A stretch of 64,000 bases of DNA from a virus (IMGVR_UViG_3300045988_058553:119095-183094); one strand, 5' to 3'. Numbered from the stretch's first letter, positions 21,132 through 42,180 are shown. Made by a program: numbers and translations. Notes: generated by a model from the sequence alone, not told the origin.

Positions 21132-21767
21132 TTACTCTGGAAGTATGCCGTACTTCCATATGTAGCCATAAGCATGAGTTATTTTATGATTGCAACAATC
21201 AGTGATATGTCTTTTGCAATTAACAGTTTTTGCTAGACCATTATCTACAAGCCATTTAGCTGCTTCCTCTCTTCCCCAGAAGTGCTATATATAATTGCCA
21301 GCCATATCAAATTGATCGATTTTCTTAGCAGACCCACCTCTGATTTTAATGCTATGAGCTTTCAATACCTTTCTTACAGTATCATCACTACATCCCACTT
21401 TCTCTGCAACTTTTTTGCAAGTATATCCCATATTGTATAGTTCGATTATCTCTTGATAATCATATAACTATGTTCCGTCTCCACCCTTAGTAGCATTATA
21501 GCCTTTGGAGCCATAAGTTTCCAACTCTTTTATCCAATATACCTCTCTTTCTGAGAGTATGTTTTCATCCTTTACATATTCTAATTCCTCTACTATAAAG
21601 TTTTCAACTCCATATTTATTCATAGCATCATATAATGGACGTTTTTCACATCTTTCTTTTCGAGAATCCTTGCAGTGTTCCTAAAATCTTTCCTATGTAG
21701 TAAAGAGGGTTTTACCAACGTATCTTTTATTGTTGATAATATTTGTAATGCAATAGATATATCCCAT
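21132..21767 (-). CDS. GIY-YIG homing endonuclease (copy A, 5 in-frame TAG codons)
   Basis: Starts MGYIYCITNIINNKRYVGKT (GIY-YIG) and contains KYGVENF...GYNATKGGDG. The only internal stops are TAG. Ends at TAA. Confidence 0.55.
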
Positions 21768-21824
21768 ATCATAAATTATTTATAACATTATTAATAATTG
21801 ATTGAATTAGCTTTACCCAAAACA

Positions 21825-21838
21825 CACCACGTGGAGGT
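21825..21838 (-). promoter_or_regulatory. conserved 14-nt motif ACCTCCACGTGGTG upstream of GIY-YIG copy A
   Basis: Identical 14-mer, with palindromic core CCACGTGG, 42-71 nt upstream of all three GIY-YIG starts and 17-19 nt downstream of a tRNA 3' end. Confidence 0.4.
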
Positions 21839-21854
21839 TTCAATCTTGTGTTTC

Positions 21855-21940
21855 TACCCGAAGTGGGACTCGAACCCACACGCCCATTACTGGGCATCAG
21901 AGCTTAAATCTGACGTGTCTACCAATTCCACCATTCGGGC
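21855..21940 (-). tRNA. tRNA-Leu(TAA), type II
   Basis: Manual fold: acceptor GCCCGAA/TTCGGGT, anticodon stem TCAGA/TCTGA, loop TTTAAGC, long variable arm, T-loop TTCGAGT. Confidence 0.65.
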
Positions 21941-22026
21941 ATAATAATTAGCTATACTCACGTACCGCTAATCAACTTACTATAATAACAGTACAAGTGT
22001 TAAATTCAAAGTTAAAAACCGTTAAC

Positions 22027-22341
22027 TTATTTAAACTGCAAACAAATGTTAATAAATTTATCGACATCAGTTCCGCAATCTACATAATTCGGAGTGTTAG
22101 CTTCGAAGTATTTGAGAACAGCCTCTGTTCCAAAAAGTCCTATCTCTTCGAAATCATACCCCTCACCGTGAATATCCGATGTAGGCATATTTGGTCTGAA
22201 TACTAACCAGGCTGTACCAGGAAATTCACAACACGTACAAACAGTCAATCCACTTTCTCTTAGTTTATCTAAGATTTGTGGACTAACTGTTTTCAATACG
22301 ACACAATTATCCGAGTTCTGCAAGTCGTTGTCTGATTTCAT
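22027..22341 (-). CDS. hypothetical protein
   Basis: 104-aa ORF. Confidence 0.4.
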   Translation of the reverse strand: MKSDNDLQNSDNCVVLKTVSPQILDKLRESGLTVCTCCEFPGTAWLVFRPNMPTSDIHGEGYDFEEIGLFGTEAVLKYFEANTPNYVDCGTDVDKFINICLQFK

Positions 22342-22717
22342 CTTCGGACATACTTTCCATTTTCTCGGACTGTTTCTTAGCCAGCAGTTCAGTCAGGCGT
22401 GCCTTCTCAGCTGCCTTATCTTTAGCTGCTTCTCTAGCGGCCTTGTCTTTCAGCTTATCAGTGATAACATCTTTCACAATATTGAACTTTAACTCCAGTT
22501 CGCTATTGCTAGGAGTATCATTAGTTATGAAAGATTTTCTAGGACTCTTGGCTAATTCTTCGTCATAGGACACTCCCAGCTCACTAATCTTATATATCAT
22601 AAGAATTTGGTGAAATCTTAGATAAGGATATTGGTCAATGATTTGACTCAATCTAGTTAATATCTTGAAATTAGCTTTCTTTCTAAATTTGATAGCTTCT
22701 TCAATTTGAGCTTCCAT
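22307..22717 (-). CDS. hypothetical protein
   Basis: 136-aa ORF with a Lys/Ala-rich C-terminus. Confidence 0.4.
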   Translation of the reverse strand: MEAQIEEAIKFRKKANFKILTRLSQIIDQYPYLRFHQILMIYKISELGVSYDEELAKSPRKSFITNDTPSNSELELKFNIVKDVITDKLKDKAAREAAKDKAAEKARLTELLAKKQSEKMESMSEDEIRQRLAELG

Positions 22718-23195
22718 ATTTATTAAGTATATCTAATTCCAATTCCTTAACTTTACTTTCATACAAAGAATCCTCAGCGTAGCCAATTCTGTCTAGGAAT
22801 TTGTAGTAATCCTCTTCTGGGTTATACTTACTAAGGATAAATTGTTTATAAGCGAACACACAGCTTATCCAACTATCGAACTTGAAGTAAGACATTGTTC
22901 TGGAATTATACAATCCGAACAGATTGTTATTGTCCTTACAAAGTTTCGATTTAAAATTGCCAGATTCCAGAACAGCCTGAGCTGTTATAATTGCTGGATT
23001 TGGAAAATCGTAATGCTTCAAAGTATTGTACAATACTTCTTCGTTTACTTCATCCAATAAGTAGAATGGATGCTCTGGCAGCAATACCATTTCCTCCTGT
23101 TTCTGATTGAAATGTATCAGATGATGCAAAGAATAACCAGTTGCAAATCCGAATACAATACTAATCATGAGGATAATTAAAACTTTCTTTTTCAT
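22701..23195 (-). CDS. glucosaminidase-family peptidoglycan hydrolase (endolysin candidate) with N-terminal signal-anchor
   Basis: N-terminal TM segment. AQAVLESGNFKSKLCKDNNNLFGLYNS matches the mannosyl-glycoprotein endo-beta-N-acetylglucosaminidase core. Confidence 0.5.
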   Translation of the reverse strand: MKKKVLIILMISIVFGFATGYSLHHLIHFNQKQEEMVLLPEHPFYLLDEVNEEVLYNTLKHYDFPNPAIITAQAVLESGNFKSKLCKDNNNLFGLYNSRTMSYFKFDSWISCVFAYKQFILSKYNPEEDYYKFLDRIGYAEDSLYESKVKELELDILNKYGSSN

Positions 23196-23494
23196 ATCTC
23201 AATTGAATTAATAAATCTCGCATCATTAGCTAATTGATATACAGTAGTATTTAGCTCTGGTACATAGACTATATAGTAGTAATCAAAGAATTGATTATTA
23301 TCCTCAAATCCTATGATTACTCCTTTTCGTCCTCCATCTACAATGCAGTCTCTATACATATATTTTGCAATATCTTGACGGATTCCGTCATGATTTATTA
23401 CAGCCTGCAATGCAGAAAGTCCGTAGTAAGATGTATTTACACCCCTTATCTCATGTCCAAGCAAATCTTTATCAAAAGGAGAACTTACTATCAT
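23192..23494 (-). CDS. hypothetical protein
   Basis: 100-aa ORF. Confidence 0.4.
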   Translation of the reverse strand: MIVSSPFDKDLLGHEIRGVNTSYYGLSALQAVINHDGIRQDIAKYMYRDCIVDGGRKGVIIGFEDNNQFFDYYYIVYVPELNTTVYQLANDARFINSIEI

Positions 23495-23814
23495 AACAAT
23501 ACTCTAGTTAAGTCTTCTATAGTTAGATTAGCTATCTTCGATAATTCACAGATTTGGTTTGAGAAATCTAGCCTCGTTTTAAGTTCTAAATCCCTCCATT
23601 GCCGTACCTCCTTTCGACTCTTTCTAAGTTCTTCTTGTAAGTAGGATATAGCCGCCCTTGCTGACTTTAATTGCTCTGTAGAACAAACGACAAAGTGCTT
23701 AGCTCCCTTCTTATTTGTAGAAGGAAGAGCGGCCTCAGCCTCTTCAATACTATCGAACTGTCCTAAGATAAAAGGAATATTATTACATTCCTTAATTAAA
23801 TAGTACTTACTCAT
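23491..23814 (-). CDS. hypothetical protein
   Basis: 107-aa ORF. Confidence 0.4.
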   Translation of the reverse strand: MSKYYLIKECNNIPFILGQFDSIEEAEAALPSTNKKGAKHFVVCSTEQLKSARAAISYLQEELRKSRKEVRQWRDLELKTRLDFSNQICELSKIANLTIEDLTRVLL

Positions 23815-24004
23815 CTTTAATTCCTAGATAATCCTTTAATAATTGAATGTTTCCTTCTCTCAAATGCCGAATAAAAGCCTCCCTTTCTCTCTCTCAAATA
23901 GCAGAATTTTACTCTCTAACAGGTCTATTCGTCTTTGTTGATTTTCCTCGTATTCTTCAATAGCGTCAGAAATTGCTTTAAGTATAGAAGATTCCTTCAT
24001 AGCG

Positions 24005-24430
24005 CTACTCATTGTAGAACTCTTCGTCCCCATTATCGTCGCCTATAGGATTCTCCCATCCATACTTTACAGCAGTAGCCTTAAACAAAGGCAACCCATA
24101 CATAGCATAATTCTCTTCAGGATAATTCTCTAAGCCCTCTTCTAGAACTTGATTCCACCTTAGTACCACGTAGAACATTAGGCTAGCTGAAATGCCTCTC
24201 TGGTCTAGAGCCTTCTCAAAACCAAACTCCACGTCAGACTTAAGTTGCTCTAGGATATTCTCTCTAGTCCATTCCTTAGGCTCTGGATAAGGCTCATCAC
24301 CATCGTACTTGAAGCCTATTTTTTCTAACTGCTCTTCTGTTAAAAACTTTGCTAATCTAGAACCGAAACGGTCATCGAGAACTACGGCATAGTCTTTGTA
24401 ATTGTCTAAAATCTCATTTAACGTTTTCAT
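24005..24430 (-). CDS. hypothetical protein
   Basis: 141-aa ORF. Confidence 0.4.
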   Translation of the reverse strand: MKTLNEILDNYKDYAVVLDDRFGSRLAKFLTEEQLEKIGFKYDGDEPYPEPKEWTRENILEQLKSDVEFGFEKALDQRGISASLMFYVVLRWNQVLEEGLENYPEENYAMYGLPLFKATAVKYGWENPIGDDNGDEEFYNE

Positions 24431-24433
24431 TTT

Positions 24434-24754
24434 TTACATATCTTTTAGGTAAATATTTTGAGGATATTCCCCGAATACTGATAGAGTTACAGCACAAATC
24501 CATACCCTGTCATTGTAATTCTTACTTTTGCATAAGTAAGTTGCTCCACATTCATCCTCCTCAATTTTAGACAACGTTATCTTAGCTGCAGCTGGGTCAA
24601 CCATCTGCAATCTAACAAACTTATTATCTAGAGAATCAAGAAGTTCATCTGCACCACCAACCATTGCTAGTTCCTCTGGTGTTCCGTCATAATCTGGCCA
24701 CCAATAGAACCAGACTCCTCCAACCTTTACAAACTCAAATGTTTTTCTCATCAA
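24434..24754 (-). CDS. hypothetical protein
   Basis: 106-aa ORF. Confidence 0.4.
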   Translation of the reverse strand: MMRKTFEFVKVGGVWFYWWPDYDGTPEELAMVGGADELLDSLDNKFVRLQMVDPAAAKITLSKIEEDECGATYLCKSKNYNDRVWICAVTLSVFGEYPQNIYLKDM

Positions 24755-24810
24755 TTATTAATTATATTAAACAAAAAATACCCAACAACTTTCGCTGCTG
24801 GGGTACATAG

Positions 24811-24882
24811 TAACGCCAACGGGATTCGAACCCGTATGGCAGGCGTGAAAAGCCTAAATCCTAACCATTAGATGATGGCGCT
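24811..24882 (-). tRNA. tRNA-Glu(TTC)
   Basis: Acceptor AGCGCCA/TGGCGTT, anticodon stem TAGGC/GCCTG, loop TTTTCAC, T arm ACGGG-TTCGAAT-CCCGT. Confidence 0.6.
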
Positions 24883-24885
24883 ATC

Positions 24886-25437
24886 CTACTGCACAATCAA
24901 GCTATAAGCTTCTTGCAACAGTTTAATAGTTGGAACCATACGGTTATCAACAACTATTATTTTATAAATGTTCAGAATTTCTTTGTAGGTTAAAGATGTA
25001 CAAGTTAGAAATATCTGCACATCTTCGTTTACAGAACCATTTGACAATCCCAAATCTACTTTAATCATACTGGGTAATGTTCCAATCTGAGAAATATCCC
25101 AAGTAGATTTAGTTCTCCTGAAAACTTCCCGCTGTTTGGAAGTAAGTTGCTTTTCTTTCAATCTAGACTCAATAATAGTACCATCAAACGTTAACGAACC
25201 TCCATCGGTATTACTATTATTTAATGCTAGCTGAATCTTCTGAACTGCAGAGTCTTTAGGTTTTGGCTTAAGTTGCACTCCTTCCTTCAAGCCCTTAATA
25301 ATCTGCAATGAAGGAATAAAGTCTTTTATTTGAGTTGCATTCCATACAAGAAATTTTCCAGGACTATCCTTAACAGTAACTATATACTTAGTCCCTCCGT
25401 TCAATGGGATAATTACTTGTAAGTCTGCATCACTCAT
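24886..25437 (-). CDS. hypothetical protein
   Basis: 183-aa ORF. Confidence 0.4.
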   Translation of the reverse strand: MSDADLQVIIPLNGGTKYIVTVKDSPGKFLVWNATQIKDFIPSLQIIKGLKEGVQLKPKPKDSAVQKIQLALNNSNTDGGSLTFDGTIIESRLKEKQLTSKQREVFRRTKSTWDISQIGTLPSMIKVDLGLSNGSVNEDVQIFLTCTSLTYKEILNIYKIIVVDNRMVPTIKLLQEAYSLIVQ

Positions 25438-25586
25438 TTTACTTAAATGGTCTGATACTCTAACTTTGACGTTTCCAATGACAAAGTAGCGAGAAACAGT
25501 TGTTTCGCTTCGATAATCTCAGTAGCAGTTGCTACTAAATACTTTTCTAATCTAGTCATAAAAATTAATCTGATTTAATGGTTAAG

Positions 25587-25659
25587 ATCCCCCACTCGGA
25601 TTCGAACCGAGGTCTCGAGATTACAAATCACGTGTTCTAACCAACTAAACTACAGGGGA
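25587..25659 (-). tRNA. tRNA-Thr(TGT)
   Basis: Acceptor TCCCCTG/TGGGGGA with two G-U pairs, anticodon loop TTTGTAA, T arm CTCGG-TTCGAAT-CCGAG. One mismatch in the anticodon stem. Confidence 0.5.
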
Positions 25660-25665
25660 ATAAAT

Positions 25666-25703
25666 GCCGAGACTGGGGGATTCGAACCCCAACCTTCACA
25701 GTG
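25666..25703 (-). pseudogene. tRNA 3'-half remnant (Asp-like)
   Basis: GCACTGTGAAGG-TTGGGG-TTCGAAT-CCCCC-AGTCTCGG duplicates the anticodon-3'/T-arm/acceptor part of the adjacent tRNA-Asp. No 5' half is present. Confidence 0.4.
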
Positions 25704-25775
25704 CCGAGAGTACCAGACTCGAACTGGTGACCTTCGCATAGACAGTGCACTATTCTACCACTGAACTAACCCTCG
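25704..25775 (-). tRNA. tRNA-Asp(GTC)
   Basis: Canonical numbering fits (U8, G18G19, T54T55C56). Anticodon loop CTGTCTA. The 5' part TAGTTCAGTGGTAGAATA is typical of tRNA-Asp. Confidence 0.65.
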
Positions 25776-25800
25776 GTGTAACTGGATTACTCCAGACTAA

Positions 25801-26451
25801 TTAAACCCTTCTCTAACATAATATGGTGATTCGGACATAACCTCCGCAGGATTTTGCTTTTCCTACACAACAATCAATTATATGATTACTAGCAGAGTGT
25901 CTACTCTTTGATTTTCCTACTTCAACTAGCCAATCTGCGGCTTTCAGAGAACCAGGAAATTCCTAAATTTTGTTTCCAGCTTTATCATACTGAACAACAA
26001 TTCTACATTCACGTGCCTATTTATTAGCTCTTCCATCTATTCCGTGAGCTTTTAACACTAAGTACACAGTTTCCACTGAACAACCAATCTTTTCTGATAC
26101 CTCTTTACATAAATACCCTAAGTTATATAATTCAATAATTTCCTTGTAGTCATACAATATCTTCCCATCACCGCCTTTAGTGGCATTATATCCATCTTTA
26201 TAAGACTACAGTTTGTTTATCCAATATATTTCTCTATCTGATAGGGAGTTATCATCTGCTTCCTCTAGGCACTCAACTATGAAATTCTCAACCCCGTACT
26301 TATTCATGGCATCGTACAATGGTCTCTTTTCACATCTTTCCTTCTAACTATCTTGACAATGTTCTCTAAAACGCGCTTGTGGGTTTTGCGTAGTCTTTCC
26401 TACATAGCGCTTATTGTTAATCAAGTTTGTAATACAATAAATATATCCCAT
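25801..26451 (-). CDS. GIY-YIG homing endonuclease (copy B, in-frame TAG codons)
   Basis: MGYIYCITNLINNKRYVGKT...KYGVENF...GYNATKGGDG, with the C-terminus homologous to copy A. Four internal TAGs, terminates at TAA. Confidence 0.5.
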
Positions 26452-26492
26452 AATTTTCTTTTTTTATTAAACATTTAGTTTTAATCCAGAGT

Positions 26493-26506
26493 TCACCACG
26501 TGGAGG
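26493..26506 (-). promoter_or_regulatory. conserved motif ACCTCCACGTGGTG upstream of GIY-YIG copy B
   Basis: Same 14-mer as at 21,825 and 42,167. Confidence 0.4.
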
Positions 26507-26523
26507 TAGTTTAATACGAACTC

Positions 26524-26570
26524 CTGGACCTAACGGGAGTCGAACCCGTGTCCAAACAACCCTCGTTACA
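26524..26570 (-). pseudogene. tRNA 3'-fragment (T arm + acceptor TAGGTCC-A) without a 5' half
   Basis: ACGGG-TTCGACT-CCCGT followed by TAGGTCCA. The same acceptor 3' strand occurs in the fragment at 32,906. Confidence 0.35.
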
Positions 26571-27126
26571 AGGATAACGTGCGTCTCATTTTTATTACAT
26601 CAGCTAGGGAGTTCTAGCATTTAGGTAGTTTTATAAGTCTTACAAGAGTCCATACTAAGTATTTCTCTAGATGCTTATCTACAAGCTACCAAACTATAGG
26701 GCTGACCGAAGTCAACGTTCCACCACTCCATTTACGTTGGAGAACGGGATGATACTTTAGAGATTCGTCACATCTCACGGAACACATCTTCCATCTGTTT
26801 TATGACGTAGGAGATTCAGTCTTACTAACTCTTAGAGTGTTCTGATTAAGAGCATATTACTAGGATTAGAGCCTAGCTCTCCATTATATCAATATACTCA
26901 ACCTCTTCTGTTTCTAGGTCTCTCCCGTAACCCGACTTAGTTAATAGTGTTTACCAACAAGCCAGCAGCTTAGGCTGCCATTCTTACTTCGCTATAAGTA
27001 GCATTTATTGTTTTTTCTTCGTTTAAAGAGATTGCGCTCTACACGTCCTTATAATTTGTAATCGCCTGTCAAATCCAAGTAGGCCCATACCCAGTTTATC
27101 TTTAATTAGAAAACTGGAAAAAGAAA

Positions 27127-27378
27127 TTATAACATTATAGTTGTACCCTCAGGTAGTGTTCGTAACTTAGTATTAGTATAGTCTCTAGCACCCTTACTAA
27201 ATATCTCAGGATAGTAAGAACAACTTCCTAATATAAATAGTGCAAGTCCACATCTTTGAATTATATCTCCGTTAGATACTGTTCCATCCTCAAACCATTC
27301 CATCACTTCTGCAAATTCCCCATCCTTTAGGTCTTTAAGTTGGATTATATCAGAGGCCCTATTTACTACTTTCGCCAT
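27127..27378 (-). CDS. hypothetical protein
   Basis: 83-aa ORF. Confidence 0.4.
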   Translation of the reverse strand: MAKVVNRASDIIQLKDLKDGEFAEVMEWFEDGTVSNGDIIQRCGLALFILGSCSYYPEIFSKGARDYTNTKLRTLPEGTTIML

Positions 27379-29701: not shown

Positions 29702-30124
29702 TTATTTCTCAATCTGTTTGGAAATTTCTAATGCGGCAGTTTCATCACTGATACATTCAGTAGGACATGGAATAATATTTCCGTGAATTTCTCTATGGCA
29801 ATTAGCACAAACTAATATGCATTTATCCAATTCTTCTTTAACACGTTCCCATGAACGTGTATAACCCTTAGCGGATATTCCGAAGTCCTTTTCTTCTGAA
29901 TTAATATGGTGAAACTCTAAAGCCCCAACATATTTGTTATATCCACAACATTGGCACTTTCCACCTTTGTAAGCAATAGACATAAGTTTTACTTTATCTC
30001 TTCTTCTCTATACTGCCTCTGCTTCACATTTAAGACATTTCCATTTGGTTCTATTACCATCTTTTCGTTCTGCAAATTCAGTTTCTCCATGAATCTAGCA
30101 GAACATAATTTCTCTCTTATTCAT
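29702..30124 (-). CDS. HNH homing endonuclease with TAG-containing N-terminal extension
   Basis: CANCHREIHGN HNH motif. Reading TAG as sense extends the ORF upstream to MNKREIMFC-Q-IHGETEF..., ending 19 nt from the tRNA-Asn 3' end. Confidence 0.45.
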
Positions 30125-31350: not shown

Positions 31351-31402
31351 ATGGGCCTAAACCATGCCTGTATACCAATTCCAGCATTACCCCTTGCTCT
31401 TA

Positions 31403-31840
31403 CTAATTGTTATTATAATTGTGAAGTTGCATATGACAGTTAGAGCAAACTATCATCAGATTATCCAACTTATTATTATAATGATTATTATCCTTGTGAT
31501 GTAATTCTAAAGGAATTTTCATTCCCATCCACTCTGATAATCCACAACGCTCACACTTATCTTCTTTATATCCATCCTCTATCAATCTTATCCTCTTTCT
31601 AGAATTAGAAATATTAGGATTTCCTATCAGGTCTAAAGCATCTTTTCTCTTTGGGTCTAGTCTTTTTCCCCTAGAGCCTTGATTTCCCTTATACTCTATT
31701 CCCATCTTAATATAATAGGATTTTAGAGTATCGACCTTGCAGTTTAGTCTTCTAGCTATCTCAGCATTAGACTCGTTTTCTGAAATCCATTGTCGGATTT
31801 CCTATTCTCTTTCTAAAATGTCGATTCTTGCCTTTGCCAT
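31403..31840 (-). CDS. HNH homing endonuclease with N-terminal HTH-like extension through TAG
   Basis: CSNCHMQLH motif. With TAG read as sense, the N-terminus extends to MAKARIDILERE-Q-EIRQWISENESNAEIARRLNCKVDTLKSYY (sigma-r4/LuxR-like HTH). Confidence 0.4.
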
Positions 31841-32843: not shown

Positions 32844-32905
32844 TAGATTAATACATTGTCCTAGGCTATACCAATCTATACTATCTATCTTCCGATAAAC
32901 AGATG

Positions 32906-32950
32906 TGGACCTAGAGGGCTTTGAACCCCCGACCTTCTGATTATGAGTCT
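32906..32950 (-). pseudogene. tRNA 3'-half (CAT-type anticodon loop, acceptor TAGGTCC) abutting the HNH gene
   Basis: GACTCATAA-TCAGA-AGGTC-GGGGG-TTCAAAG-CCCTC-TAGGTCC-A. The HNH ORF's TAA stop lies inside the CTCATAA loop. Confidence 0.45.
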
Positions 32951-33537
32951 TTCTTTCTTATTCCTTGAATAACTCTGCGAGTTAATCCAAAATACTGCGC
33001 AACTTTCTCCCAATTCTTAAGTATTTCGTACTGCTCATTTACTTCTTCTAGAGAGGGATAATGTTTATCAGCATCTCTGCATTCCTTAGAACAGTATATC
33101 TTACCCTTAGATTTAGGAAATCTTTTGCCGCATACTGGGCATACAGACCCAGTCATATTTTCAAAAGACGTCTTATCTTTAGCTTCAGTATTAACTAAAT
33201 CTTCAACTTCGTCCATTCCCAAGTGAGGATTATGTACTTCTCTATGACAATTAGCGCATAGAAGTTGACATTTATCTGCTTCCTCTTTAAGCCTTTCTAG
33301 ACTTGTATTAGATAAATGTCTCATATCTAACTGAAACTCTTTCTCATCTGGATTGATATGGTGAAATTCTAGAACAGCTATGTTTCTATCATAGCCACAT
33401 AGTTCACATTTACCACCACGAGATTTTACCAGCTCTAATTTGCGCTTTAAACCTCTTAACTTCTGTGTATTATAATCATTGTAATTCATATACAAATATA
33501 TATGAAAATAATCATAATACCAAATGTTTTGGTGCAA
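32941..33537 (-). CDS. HNH homing endonuclease flanked by tRNA halves
   Basis: CANCHREVHNPH motif plus C-terminal CPVCGK...C zinc ribbon. Bounded by a 12-bp inverted repeat T(G/A)ATTATGAGTC at 32,938-32,950 and 33,644-33,655. Confidence 0.55.
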   Translation of the reverse strand: MHQNIWYYDYFHIYLYMNYNDYNTQKLRGLKRKLELVKSRGGKCELCGYDRNIAVLEFHHINPDEKEFQLDMRHLSNTSLERLKEEADKCQLLCANCHREVHNPHLGMDEVEDLVNTEAKDKTSFENMTGSVCPVCGKRFPKSKGKIYCSKECRDADKHYPSLEEVNEQYEILKNWEKVAQYFGLTRRVIQGIRKKDS

Positions 33538-33657
33538 AATTAAAAATTCAATCCAGAAGTTGTAGGGACGGTGGGGTTTGAACCCACGTGCGACCGACTA
33601 CCCTTTCTACAAGGTATAAGCTTGAGGGGATACGTCCCTATCTGACTCATAATTAGT

Positions 33658-33685
33658 TGCTCTGACCGGACTGAGCTATAGGTCC
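33658..33685 (-). pseudogene. tRNA 5'-half (acceptor GGACCTA + D arm) upstream of the HNH gene
   Basis: GGACCTA-TA-GCTC-AGTCCGGTCA-GAGC-A is a clean acceptor 5' strand and D arm. GGACCTA pairs perfectly with the TAGGTCC of the fragment at 32,906. Confidence 0.45.
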
Positions 33686-33691
33686 TAAATA

Positions 33692-35512: not shown

Positions 35513-35536
35513 ATCTAATAATTATTTAAGTTAATG

Positions 35537-35624: not shown

Positions 35625-35684
35625 AAATTGCGAAGGGGCTTTTGTTATACTTTACTAATTCTTTGTAAAGCCCCTTCGCTGTGA

Positions 35685-37643
35685 TTACTTCACTTCTTCA
35701 AACTCAGTAGCTTCTACTTGCTTCTTTCCGAACATTTCCTTTACTGTGTCAGCGAAAGGAATAGAACGTAATAAGTCAAGAGCAGGATTCAAGTTCTCAG
35801 CAGTCTTAGCCATGAAATTACCAGCGGTATTCTCATTACCATAAACAGTAACCTGTCCAAGGTGAATGTGTTCAAACATCTGAGCAGATGCCTGAGCAAT
35901 ACCGGCCAATTGGTCAACAGTCTTGTACTGAACCACCATTTGTGGAGTCAAGCCAGATTCAATCATCTTCTCAACTGCCAAGGCTGGAGCCATTTCGATA
36001 GCTTGAACCTTATCAGCTTCTGCCATCAATGATGCTCTCTTACCTTCAGCTTCAGCAAGCAATTTCTTGCGAGTACCTTCTGCCTCTGCTTCTAACTGCA
36101 GTTTAGTAGCGTCAGCTTTCGCTTCTGCTTCTTTCAAAATCTTTGCAGCTTCTGCTTCTGCTTCCAATACCGCTTTGGCTTTAATTGCTTCTGCTTCAAT
36201 AGTTACTCTCTCTTTTTGTTTCTGAGCAGGAACAATCATTTCAGCTTGAAGTTTTGCTTCCTCTGCCTTAGCAGCAGCTTCGTTAACCTCAATCTGGCGT
36301 TCTTGTTCTGTTTTGGCTACAGCCATTCTTGCTTCTACTTTAGAAGTACCAGCTACCTTTTCTGCTTCAGCTTGTGCCTGTGCAGCTTCTCCTTTTGCCT
36401 TTGATACTTCAATAGTTGCTTTCTGCTCAGCTACTCCAGCTTGCTTGTCAGCTTCTGCAGCCTTAATTCTCTTCTGAGACTCATACTCTGCAGTAGCAGC
36501 TTCTTGCTCATTAATTGCTTTCTGAGTGTCTGCTTCCTGCTTTTGCTTAGCTTGAGCAATACGAGTTTGCTTCAGAGCTTCAGCTTCAGCTTTCTTAGAA
36601 TCTGCTTCTGCCTTAGCTTTAGCTACATTAGCTTCTGCTTCTGCGTCAGCAGCAGCTTTCTTAGAAGCAGCCTCTGAAGCGGATTTCGCTACATTAGCTA
36701 TTCTCTGAGATTCAGCTTCAGCTTTAGCTGATTCTGCTTGAGTGTTTGCACGAGCAATACTAGCTTCTTGTTCCGCCTTCTGTTCAGCGATACCAGCTTG
36801 TTTGTTCTTTTCTGCTTCTGCCAAGCGAATAGCTTTCTCCTGATTAATCTCAGCAACCTTTACTTCCTGTTCTTGCTTAGTTTGAGCAACTGTAGTTTCT
36901 CTTTCCTTTTCAGCATCGGCTACGGCAATCTCACGCTGTTTGTTGGTTTCTGCAATCTGAATATCTCCTTTCTTCTTCTCTTCTGCAATGTCAGCCTGTG
37001 CCTGAGCAAGAGCTTTAGTTGCAGCTTTCTGACCAAGATTCTTGATATAGTTTGCATCGTCCGAGATATCAGCGTTGTTAATATTGATAATACTGAAACC
37101 TACCTTGTTCAACTCAGTTTCAATATTCTCTTTTGCCTTGCCGATAAATTTGATTCTATCAGCATTTATTTCCTCAATCGTCATTGTTGCCATCAAGCTT
37201 CTCACTTCACCAATGAGAATATCCTTGATTTGGTCTGAGATTTCAGAAGTTTTAGCTGTTAAGAATCTGCTTGCAGCGTTTTGCATTAGTACTTGATCGG
37301 TTCCTATACCAGTAGTTAATGTCACAGGAATCCTAACCTTAATCATTTGGCTGGATACTCCCTCTACCATTACCTGAATCTGAATAGGTTTCAAGGACAT
37401 TTTAGCCCAGTCTTGAATGACAGGCATTACGAATGTACCTCCGCCGTGGATGATTTTAGACGGCAGTATAACTTCCTCCGTTTTACCAGTCTTCTCGTTA
37501 ACTACCTTCTTCTTTCCTGCCTTACCAAATACTACCAGGATTTCATCACTAGCACACTTACGATACCGAGACAAAAGTCCGATAAAAGTTACAACTACTA
37601 AGAGTACAATAACACCCGCTACAATAAGAGTTTCTGTTGTCAT
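35685..37643 (-). CDS. flotillin/SPFH (band-7) family membrane protein
   Basis: N-terminal TM helix, SPFH-like region, then a ~350-aa Ala/Glu/Lys/Gln coiled coil (AEAE...KAEA repeats) and a flotillin-like C-terminus. Confidence 0.55.
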   Translation of the reverse strand: MTTETLIVAGVIVLLVVVTFIGLLSRYRKCASDEILVVFGKAGKKKVVNEKTGKTEEVILPSKIIHGGGTFVMPVIQDWAKMSLKPIQIQVMVEGVSSQMIKVRIPVTLTTGIGTDQVLMQNAASRFLTAKTSEISDQIKDILIGEVRSLMATMTIEEINADRIKFIGKAKENIETELNKVGFSIININNADISDDANYIKNLGQKAATKALAQAQADIAEEKKKGDIQIAETNKQREIAVADAEKERETTVAQTKQEQEVKVAEINQEKAIRLAEAEKNKQAGIAEQKAEQEASIARANTQAESAKAEAESQRIANVAKSASEAASKKAAADAEAEANVAKAKAEADSKKAEAEALKQTRIAQAKQKQEADTQKAINEQEAATAEYESQKRIKAAEADKQAGVAEQKATIEVSKAKGEAAQAQAEAEKVAGTSKVEARMAVAKTEQERQIEVNEAAAKAEEAKLQAEMIVPAQKQKERVTIEAEAIKAKAVLEAEAEAAKILKEAEAKADATKLQLEAEAEGTRKKLLAEAEGKRASLMAEADKVQAIEMAPALAVEKMIESGLTPQMVVQYKTVDQLAGIAQASAQMFEHIHLGQVTVYGNENTAGNFMAKTAENLNPALDLLRSIPFADTVKEMFGKKQVEATEFEEVK

Positions 37644-37658
37644 CTTTAAAAATTCTTT

Positions 37659-38186
37659 TTAGTTAAAATAATACTTTCCATTCTCAAATTTTGAAATTCT
37701 CACTTTGTCCCCGTTTTTATACGTCTTATGCTCTTCTTCAGCATAAGCTGACAATTCTTGAAGCATTCCATTTATCTCAACTAAGATAACAGAACTACCA
37801 CCAGAAATATCATTAGGGATAGTGATTGTTCCAATTCTCCCAACTAAGGCTTCACCCTTTTCAGGAATAACTTGATGTTGGAGTTTTAAACAAAGTTTAT
37901 ATAAGTAGTAAAGTATAACCACAAAAAGAATACCGCATATTAATGCGATTAAATAATCGTACCATTCTATAGAATGAGAAACGGAATGCTTAATACAAAG
38001 CCATCCACTTGCTCCCATTACAAAATGTACTAGTCCTTTAAAAGAGACAATATCACTCACATCCATGTCCAATTCTCCATCTAAATCTACATCTAAGTCA
38101 GTGTCGCCACCAAACCAAGAGAGTATGAACTGAACAATAAAAATGCCATACGAAATGGCTGCTAAGAGATAATAAGTTTCGCTCAT
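37659..38186 (-). CDS. NfeD-like membrane protein (SPFH partner, OB-fold C-terminus)
   Basis: Multi-TM N-terminus and a soluble C-terminal domain, encoded immediately upstream of the flotillin-like gene. This matches the classic NfeD-SPFH operon arrangement. Confidence 0.45.
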   Translation of the reverse strand: MSETYYLLAAISYGIFIVQFILSWFGGDTDLDVDLDGELDMDVSDIVSFKGLVHFVMGASGWLCIKHSVSHSIEWYDYLIALICGILFVVILYYLYKLCLKLQHQVIPEKGEALVGRIGTITIPNDISGGSSVILVEINGMLQELSAYAEEEHKTYKNGDKVRISKFENGKYYFN

Positions 38187-38218
38187 TTTGTTTCTAAGTT
38201 TTTAGTTATTGATATTTG

Positions 38219-38291
38219 CATAGGATAAAAGGGTCGAACTCTTACTTTCAGTTTTGGAGACTGACGTGCTAACCATTAACACTAATCCTAC
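38219..38291 (-). tRNA. tRNA-Trp(CCA)
   Basis: Acceptor GTAGGAT/ATCCTAT, perfect anticodon arm TCAGT-CTCCAAA-ACTGA, G18G19 and U8 in place, T-loop TTCGACC. Confidence 0.55.
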
Positions 38292-38297
38292 AGATTG

Positions 38298-38389
38298 AGG
38301 AGGCAGTGGGACTCCAACCCACACATCGCTGTTACACGATTACTGGCAGTTTTCAAGACTGCTGCCTTAGCAATTAGGCTTATACCTCC
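38298..38389 (-). tRNA. tRNA-Ser(TGA), type II
   Basis: Acceptor GGAGGTA/TGCCTCC, anticodon arm GCAGT-CTTGAAA-ACTGC, long variable arm, T arm GTGGG-TTGGAGT-CCCAC. Confidence 0.55.
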
Positions 38390-38533
38390 ATTATAATGAA
38401 ACCTTATATTTATCCCAATCACTGGTTAATGTCTCCCCAGGCAACCTATCATAATCTTCTTGAGATATGGTTATTTGAGAGAATGAGGCTACACTCATAA
38501 AGAGCATAGCCACAATAAGCATTAAAAATTTCT

Positions 38534-38794
38534 TCATTTGTTTAGTACTCTTCTTTTAACTACTCCTGTTCCATTACACATACTACACGATTCGGTATCA
38601 CAAAGAGCACCTGGACCTAGTGTAAGGATGCCTAATACAACTCTAGACCCAGCTGACATCTTTACTTGACCAATTCCATCACAATTTGGGCAATATATCT
38701 CTTCATACTTTATGGTATCAGTTTGATTGTGATTTACTACCTTATCGTGTGTGCATGAGGCAAGCAATAGTAGAATTACAATTAGTCTAGCCAT
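38534..38794 (-). CDS. small lipoprotein with CxxC motifs
   Basis: Signal peptide plus lipobox LLLASC, and two CxxC pairs (CPNCDG, CSMCNG). Confidence 0.4.
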   Translation of the reverse strand: MARLIVILLLLASCTHDKVVNHNQTDTIKYEEIYCPNCDGIGQVKMSAGSRVVLGILTLGPGALCDTESCSMCNGTGVVKRRVLNK

Positions 38795-39342
38795 TTAAAT
38801 TCTCCTACATTGAAGTGTCTGGCAAAACAAGCATCAAACACTAGCTTTCCAAACTGAGTTGACACATATTTAGCAATCTCTTTAGATTTGCACGCAAGCA
38901 TCCCGACATTGGAATAGGCACGGCCGACGCCAACGCTAGAATTGAAACAGCCGAGACCCGCATGGCCGCCATTAGCCGCGCCGCCGCCCACCAGCGCGAA
39001 TTTCTCGCCCTGATAGCTGAAATGTCCAATAACCTCCGCATCTTTCGGCACTGATTTCATTCTAAAGAACCGAACCCAAGGATACCATACAGTTCCAGTT
39101 AATAGATTAAACTTATGTCCTTCGTTTAAGGCATCAATAATTAATTGTAGCCTAGAGAGGGATTCTATAGATTGGTTTTCTCTCATGTATGTAGCAAGAC
39201 ATACTCCCATCTCGTTGGTAGCGTCCGTGAAGGATTTTATCCTTTCTGTAGAGCTACTAGGAACAATTTCTACTTTTCCAGTCTCTGCATTGTAAACTGG
39301 TTTGTAGCCATCTGGACATTCAATTTCAATAGTTCTTTTCAT
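38782..39342 (-). CDS. DGR variable protein 2 (remote target, contains VR1)
   Basis: 186-aa ORF. Residues ~LVGGGAANGGHAGLGCFNSSVGVGRAYSNVG are encoded by the GC-rich variable repeat at 38,902-38,994. Confidence 0.55.
   Translation of the reverse strand: MKRTIEIECPDGYKPVYNAETGKVEIVPSSSTERIKSFTDATNEMGVCLATYMRENQSIESLSRLQLIIDALNEGHKFNLLTGTVWYPWVRFFRMKSVPKDAEVIGHFSYQGEKFALVGGGAANGGHAGLGCFNSSVGVGRAYSNVGMLACKSKEIAKYVSTQFGKLVFDACFARHFNVGEFKWLD
38902..38994 (-). repeat. DGR variable repeat VR1
   Basis: Aligns codon-for-codon with the TR at 63,759-63,854. Every difference falls at a TR adenine, and non-A positions are identical. Confidence 0.8.
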
Positions 39343-39371
39343 TTGTTATAATATTTAATAAAACATGGTTT

Positions 39372-39445
39372 GGGTGTTATAGCGGATTTGAACCGCTGAC
39401 CTCTACAGCCACAATGTAGCGTTCTGCCAACTGAACTAATAACAC
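39372..39445 (-). tRNA. tRNA-His(GTG) with encoded G-1
   Basis: Extra 5' G pairing with discriminator C73 (a His hallmark), perfect anticodon arm CTACA-TTGTGGC-TGTAG, T arm AGCGG-TTCAAAT-CCGCT. Confidence 0.65.
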
Positions 39446-39456
39446 CATCTAATCAT

Positions 39457-39921
39457 TTATTCAAACAACGGCAATAACTTTTTACCAAGAATCTTTACCG
39501 CTTTCTGTGCATCAGCTACAGTTCTAAAATAAACAATACCTGGATATTTTACGTTTTGATGCATGACGACGTACACTCCTTTTATATCAGTTTCCGTCTT
39601 TCCAGATAGAGAAGAACCTTTTCCAAGAAAATAGCCAGTATTACCTTCTGTTTTGATCCATCCTTTATTTAGATAGTTAGCAACTATTTGTAAACTAGCT
39701 AGAGAACTGAGTTGTTCTGTCATGCTTGGAGGACATACTAATGTATTCCAAAAACCATAATCTTCTTCAGACTCTACTATCTCTTTAAAGGAAGGAATTA
39801 GCATTTCCTCACTAAATGCAGTAAGAGCTAATTTCTTCAAGTCTTCATTACCGCTTTCATACCATTCGCGTGCCTGCTCTAAAGTTACCTCAAGATAGGC
39901 TTTTGTCTTAATTCTATTCAT
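39457..39921 (-). CDS. hypothetical protein
   Basis: 154-aa ORF. Confidence 0.4.
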   Translation of the reverse strand: MNRIKTKAYLEVTLEQAREWYESGNEDLKKLALTAFSEEMLIPSFKEIVESEEDYGFWNTLVCPPSMTEQLSSLASLQIVANYLNKGWIKTEGNTGYFLGKGSSLSGKTETDIKGVYVVMHQNVKYPGIVYFRTVADAQKAVKILGKKLLPLFE

Positions 39922-40169
39922 TTTTGTTTATTAGTTTTTAATGGACACCAATCCGGAATTAATACCCTTTCGTAAGGTCTTAACATTCCCTCAATTAGTT
40001 TATTCCCTGCCTCTTTACAAAGCGCTTTTTCATCATCGTCATTGAACCAGTCATCGGGGTCTGGGTCAGGAGCGATTCTACAATGAGGACATTCCCTACA
40101 CTGCGTAATTTCTTTTTGGAATATTACACTAGTACCAGATTTCTGGCAAGTATCCTTTTCCGTACTCAT
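39918..40169 (-). CDS. hypothetical Cys-rich protein
   Basis: 83-aa ORF with CRECPHC...C. Confidence 0.35.
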   Translation of the reverse strand: MSTEKDTCQKSGTSVIFQKEITQCRECPHCRIAPDPDPDDWFNDDDEKALCKEAGNKLIEGMLRPYERVLIPDWCPLKTNKQK

Positions 40170-40196
40170 ACGTTGTCATTTTATTCTTATTTAAAG

Positions 40197-40391
40197 TTAA
40201 ACTAAGCTCCATCCATCATTCCAATAGGAATCCTGTCTGTCCATCCAAAATAACGATGAGTCAACTTTTACACCATCTTCGAACTCATATAGTCCGCTGG
40301 AATTTATAGTTACCCATTCGTCTTTACTAAAGTATCTATGCCTTACTTTCTTTCCTTCAGACATAGCTCTAATTGCTTCTTCTTTTGTCAT
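40197..40391 (-). CDS. hypothetical protein
   Basis: 64-aa ORF. Confidence 0.3.
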   Translation of the reverse strand: MTKEEAIRAMSEGKKVRHRYFSKDEWVTINSSGLYEFEDGVKVDSSLFWMDRQDSYWNDGWSLV

Positions 40392-40412
40392 AATCTAATT
40401 AATTAAAATGTG

Positions 40413-40496
40413 TGGGATTGGGAGGACTCGAACCTCCAGTCTCAAAAGAGAGCAGATTTACAGTCTGCGCGGCTACCAATTACCGGTTACAATCCC
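40413..40496 (-). tRNA. tRNA-Tyr(GTA), type II
   Basis: Perfect acceptor GGGATTG/CAATCCC, anticodon arm GCAGA-CTGTAAA-TCTGC, long variable arm, T arm GGAGG-TTCGAGT-CCTCC. Confidence 0.6.
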
Positions 40497-40724
40497 GAAT
40501 CGACCTAGTAGAGAACCCTGGTTTCCTCGTTTAAACATGACTAACCTATATGCAGTGGGTATACATATTTCTAAAATCCATATCCTAGGTCTAAACTCTG
40601 CGCATCTCGCTAACAGAGTTTTACTCACAGAGAGACTGATAGTAGTCTATCCAATAGTCTGCTTCCATATCTTCGAAAATCTCTTTAAGTTCTTCGTCAG
40701 ATAATCCTTCGTACTTATCTTCCA

Positions 40725-41096
40725 TTATAGCTTTCTTCTATTAAATAGATTAAAGTAACTTGCTGAATAAATATCACATAATGCCTTATACTTTTTAGGA
40801 ACTGGATAGTTAAAGTCATCAAAAGCAGATTCTTTAATAAATCCGTCTTTGAGAGCCATACTAGCAGTAGTAAAAGCAATGTTACATTTGTTCTTTTGTG
40901 CCCATGACATAATATCAGTCATTTTGGAATTAAAGTACTCTTTGTCGTTTTCAAGTAGTAAATAGATTTCTACTCTACAAATAGCAGGATTATTAAATCC
41001 TTGTTTTCCCTGTCTTAATTCTATCTTAGACACGAAATTTAAGTCTAACAAATCAGCTATTCTTTCCTTTGCGATAATTCTTGAAATTCTTATCAT
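40725..41096 (-). CDS. hypothetical protein
   Basis: 123-aa ORF. Confidence 0.4.
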   Translation of the reverse strand: MIRISRIIAKERIADLLDLNFVSKIELRQGKQGFNNPAICRVEIYLLLENDKEYFNSKMTDIMSWAQKNKCNIAFTTASMALKDGFIKESAFDDFNYPVPKKYKALCDIYSASYFNLFNRRKL

Positions 41097-41189
41097 CTTC
41101 GTGAAAATAAGTAAACCCTATAGTAGCTATTATAGCTATTTCTAGAGTAATAAATACTAAAAATCCTATTAACATATTCATTAAATTTG

Positions 41190-41272
41190 TGGGAGTGGAA
41201 GGATTCGAACCTTCTAAGCCATAGGCACTTGATTTACAGTCAAGCCCAACTCTCCAACGTTGGCGCACTCCC
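41190..41272 (-). tRNA. tRNA-Tyr(GTA), second copy, type II
   Basis: Perfect acceptor GGGAGTG/CACTCCC, D stem CCAA/TTGG, anticodon arm CTTGA-CTGTAAA-TCAAG, T arm GAAGG-TTCGAAT-CCTTC. Confidence 0.55.
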
Positions 41273-41490
41273 ATACAATTAACAGATTCGTTCTAATTAA
41301 CATAGCTGTTACCGTTCTTCCATTTGGCACCCCAAATCATCTAACAGCTAATAGCCGCAGTGCGTGGTAACGATATTAAGGACATTGCCTCTGTTAATCG
41401 GAGTAATCAGGGATTCATCTAAAAGGCACCTACAGTCCTAATTGCTGTACTAATAGTGAATGTTGATTACTTCTTGTCTGGATAGCAGGA

Positions 41491-42117
41491 TTAGTCTCTG
41501 AACTTCCACTTGTATTTATAGGCAGTTTTTGATTTGCCTTTACAACAGTTAGATATTTTCGAGAATCCTGTGTTATTTTTAGCGAAACCATTGTCACATA
41601 ACCAATTCATAGCTTCTGCAATACTATAAAAAGTTTGAATATAATTTCCAGCTAAATCATACTACATAACTATCTTTGAATCTCCTTTTCTAAGTTTTAC
41701 ATTATTTGTTTTTAGTACTTTGTAAATAATATCTTTACAACATCCTACTTTTTCGGAGATTTGTTGACTATTATATCCTAAGTTAGCTAGCTAAATAATT
41801 TCTTTATAATCATAAAGAATAGTACCATCTCCACCTCTGGAAGCATTATATCCATTAGAGCCATAAGTTCCTAATTCATTTATCCAAAAGATTTCTCTTT
41901 CAGATAATAGATTCTCATCTTCTACTTGCTCTAATTCTTCTATTATAAAGTTCTCTACACCATATTTATTCATGGCATCGTATAATGGACGCTTCTCGCA
42001 TCTTTCCTTTTGTGAATCTCTATAATGCTCTTTGAGACGTTCTTCTATAGACTATGTAGTTTTGCCTACATATCTTTTGTTATTAATTAAGTTTGTAATA
42101 CAATAAATATAATTCAT
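41491..42117 (-). CDS. GIY-YIG homing endonuclease (copy C, in-frame TAG codons)
   Basis: MNYIYCITNLINNKRYVGKTT-Q-SIEERLKEHY...KYGVENFIIEE...GYNASRGGDG. Three internal TAGs, ends at TAA. Confidence 0.5.
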
Positions 42118-42166
42118 AATTTTAGCTTTTAAGTTAGTTTGTAGATTATTAGCGTTACCCGAAACA

Positions 42167-42180
42167 CACCACGTGGAGGT
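42167..42180 (-). promoter_or_regulatory. conserved motif ACCTCCACGTGGTG upstream of GIY-YIG copy C
   Basis: Same 14-mer. Here it lies 19 nt after the tRNA-Pro 3' end. Confidence 0.4.

Follow-up and report, generated by a model that had tools for sequence, protein, structure and literature searches.

Results

Three GIY-YIG genes behind RNA 3′ ends in a phage tRNA array

The stretch analyzed here, referred to as the window, comprises 64,000 nt of a virus genome (IMGVR_UViG_3300045988_058553:119095-183094). Its minus strand harbors, between 21.8 and 42.5 kb, an array of 19 tRNA genes called by ARAGORN, and two suppressor tRNAs were found besides. At three places in this array, a predicted self-cleaving ribozyme and a GIY-YIG homing endonuclease gene (HEG) stand one behind the other, directly after the 3′ end of an RNA gene, and we consider each pair a candidate mobile cassette. 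An earlier reading of this DNA, made by a model without database searches (the sequence-only reading), had drawn attention to these places through a shared 14-nt motif. The RNA genes involved are two tRNAs and a transfer-messenger RNA (tmRNA), none of which encodes CCA.

21855-21941, minus strand: tRNA-Leu(UAA), found by ARAGORN and Rfam (tRNA, 56.9 bits), discriminator A at 21855
26525-27086, minus strand: phage tmRNA (Rfam RF00023, match 26522-27086), discriminator A at 26525
42199-42272, minus strand: tRNA-Pro(UGG), found by ARAGORN and Rfam

The second of these had been described as a tRNA 3′ fragment at 26,524. An RNA 3′ end does lie there, but it is the tRNA-like 3′ end of a tmRNA, which matches RF00023 with 57.6 bits against a gathering score of 47. 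Its acceptor stem is GGGCCTA/TAGGTCC, a plausible tag reading frame ends in RMAA followed by a stop codon, and ARAGORN calls a tmRNA at four homologous loci (L173, L333, L338 and L340).

A scan of the window for ACCTCCACGTGGTG, covering exact matches and matches with up to two mismatches (0.06 chance matches expected), returned exact copies at 21825-21838, 26494-26507 and 42167-42180, all on the minus strand, and no additional copy with two or fewer mismatches. As the sequence-only reading had stated, each copy lies between the 3′ end of an RNA gene and one of three paralogous GIY-YIG genes, and the sequence GAAACAC follows both tRNA-Leu and tRNA-Pro. The distances from RNA end to motif are, however, 16 (tRNA-Leu), 17 (tmRNA) and 18 nt (tRNA-Pro) instead of the 17 to 19 nt given before. 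The 14-mer is located 45 to 70 nt 5′ of each HEG start codon. Among the roughly 23 tRNA and tmRNA 3′ ends of the window, three are followed by the motif and the same three by a GIY-YIG gene, an overlap with a probability of 1/1771 if the two were independent.

21132-21767, minus strand: HEG A, 211 aa, four in-frame TAG codons, TAA stop at 21132-21134, Pfam GIY-YIG 41.3 bits
25801-26451, minus strand: HEG B, five in-frame TAG codons, Pfam GIY-YIG 50.5 bits
41491-42117, minus strand: HEG C, 208 aa, three in-frame TAG codons, Pfam GIY-YIG 44.0 bits

All three HEGs exceed the curated cutoff for the GIY-YIG domain (PF01541, 22.6 bits). They are 60 to 64% identical to one another, their coding DNA being about 70% identical. 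Residues Y3/Y5, Y16, R27, H31, E75 and N91 are invariant in an alignment of nine homologs, and we take them to correspond to the invariant GIY-YIG residues in the numbering of I-TevI. In the C-terminal module, HEG A matches HTH_28 and HTH_7 above their cutoffs, as expected of a DNA-binding helix-turn-helix (HTH), and HEG C carries a NUMOD1-like segment (22.3 bits, cutoff 22.8). HEG B has no Pfam match there, its C terminus being deleted: compared with loci L007 and L173, a deletion removed the last codons, the repeat of the tmRNA end described below and about 830 bp including tRNA-Ile (blastn against L007). HEG B in the window is therefore probably impaired; an intact 210-aa version is found in L007. 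That the HEGs need TAG read-through, as proposed earlier, was borne out: the open reading frames (ORFs) are open only in this way, without in-frame TAA or TGA, and the TAG positions align with Gln in the paralogs. Elsewhere, ORFs rich in TAG are concentrated in the late region on the plus strand, where recoding of TAG is evident in late genes (the ORF at 59694-61937 has 36 TAG codons).

The 14-mer as the core of a theta ribozyme

To characterize the surroundings of the 14-mer, exact matches were collected from IMG/VR, yielding 121 occurrences. Most contexts consist of a segment A, a segment B, the 14-mer, a segment A′, the sequence GGRTAAYGCTAA (at times with an inserted hairpin) and a segment B′. 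A and A′, as well as B and B′, are complementary inside each contig, and their sequences differ among contigs. The order A-B-A′-B′ is that of a pseudoknot and matches the fold of the hepatitis delta virus (HDV) ribozyme. In this fold, P1 corresponds to A/A′, P2 to B/B′ and P3-L3 to ACC-UCCACGU-GGU; P1.1 joins the CC of L3 to the GG that follows P1, P4 is reduced to a minimum, and the first base of J4/2 is the catalytic C of CUAA. We therefore identify the 14-mer as the P3/L3 core of a minimal HDV-like ribozyme of the theta type, putatively self-cleaving. In the theta ribozymes described so far, the cleavage site directly adjoins the 3′ ends of tRNAs from phages (Kienbeck et al., Nat Commun 2024, PMC10879173), and the same work reports HDV-like self-cleavage of theta ribozymes in vitro (PMC10879173). 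In its published tables the 14-mer is present 945 times, and ribozyme B is found verbatim, with the same parse, in supplementary file 4 (PMC10879173). The three sites in the window are as follows, with R1 denoting the covariance model described below.

21800-21854, minus strand: predicted theta ribozyme A, G1 at 21854; R1 65.0 bits, E 2.5e-13; RF02682 28.7 bits over the full model; P1 GAAACAC/GTGTTTT, P2 GATTGAA/TTCAATC, P1.1 CC/GG, J4/2 CTAA
26466-26524, minus strand: predicted theta ribozyme B, G1 at 26524; R1 60.4 bits; RF02682 25.0 bits; P1 GGAGTTC/GAACTCT, P2 TTAAACT/(T)GTTTAA, J4/2 CTAAA
42141-42198, minus strand: predicted theta ribozyme C, G1 at 42198; R1 66.7 bits, E 1e-13; RF02682 32.5 bits; P1 GAAACAC/GTGTTTC, P2 GTAGAT/ATCTAC, J4/2 CTAA

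At all three sites, a P1 of 7 bp and a P2 of 6 to 7 bp occur in the HDV order, that is, P1(5′), P2(5′), P3 hairpin, P1(3′), P1.1, short P4, J4/2 and P2(3′). The shared GAAACAC is accordingly the 5′ strand of P1. G1, where cleavage is predicted, is the base directly 3′ of the discriminator in tRNA-Leu, tmRNA and tRNA-Pro, well within the ±5 nt used to define theta ribozymes. The sequence-only reading had offered a processing signal as one meaning of the motif, and a ribozyme core with a predicted cut site at the tRNA 3′ end fits that description.

A P1 of at least 7 bp together with a P2 of at least 6 bp in HDV order was present in 53 of the 99 unique 14-mer contexts from IMG/VR, compared with 1.4 when the flanks were exchanged between loci, a control that is independent of any selection of sequences for alignment. 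In a 24-sequence alignment, P1 was 100% paired, with compensatory changes at five of its seven pairs, whereas slid partners were 26 to 45% paired; the CC and GG columns of P1.1 were invariant. The model R1 was built from this alignment, and a search of the window with filters off gave exactly three strong matches (60.4 to 66.7 bits). Moreover, the Rfam family RF02682 (HDV-F-prausnitzii) aligned over its full length at each of the three sites; no separate Rfam family exists for theta ribozymes. Folding of the single sequences gave z-scores of +0.8, -2.1 and -0.6, which is uninformative because pseudoknots are not predictable in that manner.

A different view of the 14-mer is that it acts as DNA, either as a shared middle or late promoter or, through the palindrome CCACGTGG, as a binding site for a protein or an endonuclease. 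The motif is perfectly conserved next to coding DNA that has diverged to about 70% identity, contains a palindrome and lies upstream of every HEG start codon, as such a signal might. Nevertheless, the two interleaved helices covary between phages, a pattern accounted for by an RNA fold alone; the 14-mer, together with GGRTAAYGCTAA on its 3′ side, fits the HDV-like consensus; and the 14-mer also occurs where no ORF comes next. The palindromy of CCACGTGG needs no separate function because its bases belong to the 3-bp P3 stem and its loop L3, with covariation as RNA helices on both sides. A DNA signal is thus highly improbable, and neither the late promoter nor the role suggested earlier for the palindrome finds support in the IMG/VR contexts.

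Ribozyme and endonuclease gene are gained and lost as one unit

The sequence-only reading had suggested a mobile cassette of motif and HEG that targets the 3′ flank of tRNA genes, and had proposed a comparison of related genomes. A megablast search of the array against GenBank phages returned fragments only, and IMG/VR was used instead. Relatives were human gut phage contigs of about 185 to 193 kb, from which syntenic loci were fetched by means of flanking-gene anchors. As seen in the following list, all three sites of the window are polymorphic, and so is a fourth that is unfilled in the window.

Behind tRNA-Leu: filled in the window and five further loci (HEG intact in three and 96-98% identical, frameshifted in one, reduced to its first ~30 codons in one); empty in 31 loci, which have tRNA-Leu with neither ribozyme nor HEG
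Behind tmRNA: filled in the window, L334 and L338; empty in about 20 loci, tRNA-Ile following the tmRNA directly
Behind tRNA-Pro: filled in the window and L269; empty in about 25 loci (for example L243 and L246)
Behind tRNA-Met: filled in L168, L103 and L112; empty in L167, L169 and L170

Clean empty alleles thus exist at every site used in the window, in agreement with the cassette suggestion, and none of the roughly 75 empty alleles at the four sites contains the ribozyme. At the tRNA-Leu junction, CCCACTTCGGGTA runs directly into CTATAAAATG in empty alleles; in filled alleles, CCCACTTCGGGTA is followed by GAAACAC and the rest of the ribozyme-HEG segment, which ends in GAGTAA and TGCCACTTCGGGTA before CTAAATATT is reached. 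Insert A therefore measures 737 bp (21118-21854), insert C spans 41477-42198, and the units are about 720 to 740 bp in length. From the G1 of the ribozyme to the stop codon of the HEG, the unit encloses both modules, which argues against simple hitch-hiking of the ribozyme.

According to the sequence-only reading, the cassette would be called into question by related genomes that carry the motif without HEGs at unrelated positions, or by a lack of HEG-free alleles. The former holds in a wider sense, as many phage contigs contain the 14-mer with no HEG nearby; HEG-free alleles, however, are common. Since the 14-mer is not specific to HEGs, the cassette reading survives only within this phage clade.

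The right edge of the unit repeats the end of the invaded RNA

Seven independent cassettes, which follow different RNAs, have a copy of the final 11 to 17 nt of the upstream RNA 0 to 4 nt after the HEG stop codon. The repeat starts at T-loop positions 58 to 63 and extends through the discriminator.

21118-21131, minus strand: TGCCACTTCGGGTA, immediately 3′ of the stop codon of HEG A, agreeing with the final 14 nt of tRNA-Leu at 13 of 14 bases
41477-41490, minus strand: TCCTGCTATCCAGA, exact 14-nt copy of the tRNA-Pro end, abutting the stop codon of HEG C
L007/L338, tmRNA: ACTCC(C)GTTAGGTCCA
L056, another tmRNA: TCCCGACATCTCCA
L103/L168: AATCCTACCTCCGCAA
L118: ATTCCCACTACCGCAA
L269: CACTATCCAGA, matching the tRNA-Pro allele of L269 itself

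The repeat differs from target to target and therefore comes from the target rather than traveling with the element. Distant cassettes and those without a ribozyme mostly lack the repeat, which confines it to a close HEG subclade. It could have arisen by offset cuts or by microhomology-mediated joining during ectopic insertion, with the T-loop serving both as recognition core and as a source of microhomology. An apparent copy of the tRNA-Asn tail after tRNA-Glu was rejected, as it is a terminator-like hairpin.

A short duplication of target sequence also raises the possibility of a transposon-like or RNA-mediated element, in which the 11 to 17 bp would stem from staggered cuts or from target-primed copying; HDV-like ribozymes at the 5′ ends of the R2 and L1Tc retrotransposons offer a parallel. 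Consistent with this, the left boundary coincides everywhere with the predicted RNA cleavage site, and the repeat is target-derived, with edges at the T-loop and the tRNA end. However, the sole ORF of the unit encodes a GIY-YIG/HTH protein of about 210 aa, with no reverse transcriptase or transposase, and no terminal inverted repeats were apparent by eye, no dedicated search having been made. In addition, the length of the duplication is not fixed, a SegB-like cut or selection for a working tRNA explains the left boundary equally well, and conserved T-loop microhomology could set the right junction. We regard such an element as improbable.

Overall, these results point to mobile cassettes of ribozyme and HEG at tRNA and tmRNA 3′ ends, which would spread by SegB-like homing while the ribozyme restores the end of the invaded RNA. 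We put the probability of this reading at roughly 75%.

The pairing is recurrent and not obligatory

To place the three units in a wider context, 80 HEG homologs from IMG/VR were surveyed, picked regardless of ribozymes. About half of them start 18 to 160 nt after a tRNA or tmRNA on the same strand. A theta ribozyme was detected by the model in the gap of 8 of the 80, and in five more we recognized, by eye, HDV-like ribozymes with the divergent cores GCCTTCTCGTGGC or ACCTTTACGTGGT. None of the ribozyme-linked tRNAs encodes CCA. Viewed from the ribozyme, about one-third of the tRNA-associated copies with the exact 14-mer are followed by this GIY-YIG family and two by an HNH_3 endonuclease. In the latter loci (L016, 2342-2900, and L035), which come from other gut phage contigs, a theta ribozyme stands behind tRNA-Met, and a 158-aa HNH_3 ORF (Pfam 42.2 bits) begins 9 to 15 nt further on; GIY-YIG genes are therefore not the only endonuclease genes found in this arrangement with a ribozyme. 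Locus L175 joins a 5′ context that lacks the ribozyme to the tRNA-end repeat found 3′ in the tRNA-Met cassette, a mixed structure that indicates recombination between HEG paralogs.

Several observations weigh against mobile cassettes in which the ribozyme is an integral part. In about 22 of the 80 homologs, the gap measures only 18 to 41 nt and contains no ribozyme; many of the tRNAs at such short gaps encode CCA, followed by a Shine-Dalgarno sequence of the GGAGG type. Close GIY-YIG homologs of the same clade lie 18 to 19 nt after tRNA-Cys or tRNA-Met with no ribozyme (L126/L131 and L167-L172), and one ribozyme-less locus, L171, shows a degenerate repeat, from which it follows that the repeat reflects insertion of the HEG and not the ribozyme. 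Theta ribozymes with no HEG are common, and other tRNA-associated copies with the exact 14-mer precede tRNAs or small ORFs of unknown function. Comparison of the divergence of the ribozyme variable regions with that of the HEG proteins gave rho 0.21 (permutation p 0.07, a weak test). HEG B of the window is truncated, and the RF02682 scores of 25.0 to 32.5 bits fall below the gathering score of 44. This last shortfall arises because P4 is 1 nt here instead of a hairpin of about 15 nt; P1, P3/L3, P1.1 and J4/2 follow the RF02682 (drz-Fpra) consensus.

With theta ribozymes lacking a HEG and HEGs lacking a ribozyme, the pairing is frequent and recurrent, yet not obligatory from either side. The same facts suit a rival explanation, namely, that the ribozyme is an independent element of phage tRNA maturation that hitch-hikes when homing co-converts the flanks of the HEG. 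The nonsignificant co-phylogeny agrees with it, as does locus L134, which keeps the ribozyme although the HEG is largely deleted. However, at four RNA genes the segment from tRNA end to repeat holds both modules, and so each was a single insertion; the empty alleles are uniformly free of the ribozyme; and of the RNAs in the window only the three with a HEG bear it. For these reasons hitch-hiking appears unlikely, though less so than a transposon-like origin.

Other ribozymes, endonuclease genes and RNAs in the window

The region between 44 and 48 kb is unusually rich in RNAs of the self-cleaving-ribozyme type. What is probably a fourth HDV-like ribozyme, belonging to a variant class, lies at 47674-47745 (minus strand), about 25 nt 5′ of an ORF that starts at 47650 and about 170 nt 3′ of the tRNA(UUA) listed below. 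R1 matches it at 47710-47744 with 12.8 bits only. Its parts are P1 CTCTCAA/TTGAGAG, core ACCTTTACGTGGT, P4 AGCTGCTTTAGCT, J4/2 (A)CTAA and P2 AGAAC/GTTCT, and the same core ACCTTTACGTGGT occurs in L193 between a tRNA and a GIY-YIG gene. Further features of this region and the two suppressor-type tRNAs are as follows.

44490-44568, minus strand: RAGATH-1 hammerhead, 28.9 bits, below the threshold
46280-46348, minus strand: Pistol ribozyme, Rfam 63.3 bits, above the threshold
47914-47984, minus strand: suppressor-type tRNA with anticodon UUA, which would read TAA
48011-48217, minus strand: RAGATH-14 RNA, Rfam 156.6 bits, above the threshold, immediately 5′ of tRNA(UUA)
51273-51345, plus strand: suppressor-type tRNA with anticodon CUA (TAG), with a T-arm and acceptor resembling phage tRNA-Gln

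Neither suppressor tRNA has a theta ribozyme beside it in the window.

Three HNH-type ORFs are interspersed between the array tRNAs on the minus strand (29702-30120, 31400-31840 and 32941-33485), with borderline Pfam HNH matches. Together with the GIY-YIG genes, they bring the array to at least six endonuclease genes. Like the tmRNA, the pairings of P1 and P2 and the copies of RNA 3′ ends behind the HEGs, these HNH ORFs had gone unnoticed in the sequence-only reading. No theta ribozyme was found 5′ of these HNH ORFs; a weak R1 match at 32968-33027 falls inside one of them and is probably spurious. Around the last ORF, at 32905-33690 (minus strand), we observed a tRNA 5′ half (GGACCTATAGCTCAGTCCGGTCAGAGCA, from 33683) and a 3′ half (GGTCGGGGGTTCAAAGCCCTCTAGGTCCA, ending at 32905), with the acceptor GGACCTA/TAGGTCC. 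Between these halves are the HNH ORF and a weak tRNA- or tmRNA-like element (33563-33639), and a 10-bp helix, ATTATGAGTC/GACTCATAAT, could bridge them. The locus could hold a tRNA that is interrupted or contains an intron, or else a gene of the tmRNA type; when introns were allowed, ARAGORN found no such tRNA at 32.9 to 33.7 kb, and brute-force splicing gave many solutions, none of them unique.

At 25660-25702 (minus strand; GGTTGGGGTTCGAATCCCCCAGTCTCGGCA), an orphan 3′ fragment resembling tRNA-Asp immediately follows the intact tRNA-Asp, from which it differs in the T-stem but not in the acceptor end. It may be the scar of an earlier replacement of the 3′ part of the tRNA, and the Asp-Thr spacing, the single feature compared, suggests that relatives such as L173 share the arrangement. 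Finally, the spacer of about 200 nt from the tRNA-Pro site to tRNA-Tyr (41280-41476, minus strand; containing GATGAATCCCTGATTACTCCGATTAACAGAGG) is conserved with or without the cassette. It has no Rfam match and could be a structured RNA.

Discussion

A proposed mechanism for a cassette that would spare its target

As described above, the ribozyme and the HEG enter RNA genes together, and the invaded gene remains intact up to its discriminator. In HDV-like ribozymes, cleavage takes place at the 5′ end of the ribozyme itself and yields a 2′,3′-cyclic phosphate and a 5′-OH. We infer from these features a scheme that covers the activity of the ribozyme in vivo, the target and cut site of the HEG, the insulation of the RNA gene, late expression and the origin of the repeat. 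By analogy with SegB, the HEG would recognize the T-arm in tRNA or tmRNA genes that lack the cassette and cut at or near their 3′ end, at 73/74 in a SegB-like view, dependent on GGTTCGAGTCC. Recombinational repair would then copy the cassette into the cut allele. In the transcript, the ribozyme would cut right after the discriminator, giving a correctly ended, CCA-less tRNA or tmRNA and freeing a downstream RNA composed of the folded ribozyme at its 5′ end and the HEG ORF. The tRNA would thereby be unharmed by the insertion, in the way that self-splicing spares a gene invaded by an intron-borne endonuclease, and the HEG could be expressed from the tRNA-array transcript thanks to the ribozyme. 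The in-frame TAG codons, read as Gln, may defer the full-length HEG until the suppressor tRNA(CUA) is active. A scan of ten large ORFs, which was not exhaustive, found no CCA-adding enzyme or RNA-repair gene.

Comparison with known systems

The closest relative in targeting is SegB of phage T4, a GIY-YIG endonuclease encoded in the T4 tRNA cluster, which recognizes the T-arm sequence GGTTCRANTCC and cleaves immediately 3′ of the tRNA; where CCAR is lacking, it also uses further cut points that are more proximal (PMC2330249). Both SegB and the HEGs described here are GIY-YIG proteins of about 210 to 220 aa, encoded within the tRNA array of a phage and missing in related phages, and the cut point of SegB corresponds to the start of the cassette. 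On the other hand, segB lacks a ribozyme, no duplication of a tRNA 3′ end is reported for it, and its target tRNAs encode CCA (PMC2330249). Left junctions at the tRNA 3′ end and a repeat that begins in the T-loop are consistent with a SegB-like target for the HEGs in the window.

The theta ribozymes in the window share with the published ones the fold, the core ACC-U-CC-ACGU-GGU ... GG ... CUAA, the cut where a CCA-less tRNA ends, and occurrence in gut Caudoviricetes that recode TAG to Gln (PMC10879173). The published account stresses suppressor tRNAs, whereas here tRNA-Leu, tRNA-Pro and tmRNA carry the ribozyme and the two suppressors do not. Moreover, that paper and its supplements leave homing endonucleases and tmRNA unmentioned save in raw gene tables (PMC10879173), while the ribozyme of the window is linked to a HEG.

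Two further groups of elements combine a catalytic RNA with mobility. In the td intron of T4, I-TevI forms a composite of group I intron and GIY-YIG homing endonuclease. By analogy, the logic appears to be shared, a catalytic RNA traveling with a GIY-YIG gene and neutralizing its insertion. A group I intron, however, splices inside a host gene and ligates exons, whereas the RNA proposed here is of the self-cleaving type, sits at the end of the gene and would trim it. No group I intron was matched by Rfam in the window, and the tRNA genes are uninterrupted, the insert lying 3′ of them. The second group comprises retroelements: HDV-like ribozymes occupy the 5′ ends of the R2, RTE and L1Tc retrotransposons, and Penelope-like elements combine GIY-YIG with hammerhead ribozymes. 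The likeness is a ribozyme at the 5′ boundary that frees the RNA of the element from a cotranscript with a host structural-RNA gene. These elements are, however, eukaryotic and depend on reverse transcription, whereas the cassettes lack a reverse transcriptase and more likely move by homing at the DNA level. With neither splicing nor reverse transcriptase, the cassettes are members of neither group. The chances appear about even that they represent a composite mobile element of their own, in which an HDV-like ribozyme and a free-standing HEG (GIY-YIG here, HNH_3 elsewhere) invade tRNA and tmRNA genes precisely at the 3′ end and duplicate 11 to 17 bp of the target, the ribozyme playing the role of the intron.

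Implications

The theta ribozyme motif and GIY-YIG endonucleases in phage tRNA clusters, such as SegB, are already known. A ribozyme and HEG that move as one insert, and a repeat derived from the target, seem not to have been described in the literature that could be searched, which is incomplete. The theta ribozyme at a phage tmRNA 3′ end likewise seems to be the first recorded case as far as that literature goes. The filled and empty alleles of four targets are natural pairs and ready substrates for cleavage and homing assays, and the 11- to 17-bp duplication of tRNA ends offers a mechanistic clue to how HEGs arrive at new tRNA genes.

Theta ribozymes were reported in 2024 as devices for tRNA maturation and code switching, the choice of tRNAs being left open (PMC10879173). 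In the window, the RNAs that bear the ribozyme are exactly those invaded by a HEG, which provides a testable reason for part of its patchy distribution. If the cassettes move as proposed, the ribozyme would ride on a selfish element and help it, and the partnership of catalytic RNA and homing endonuclease would extend from self-splicing introns to a self-cleaving ribozyme. Part of the theta ribozymes of gut phages may then have spread by the mobility of endonucleases and not by selection for tRNA maturation or code switching.

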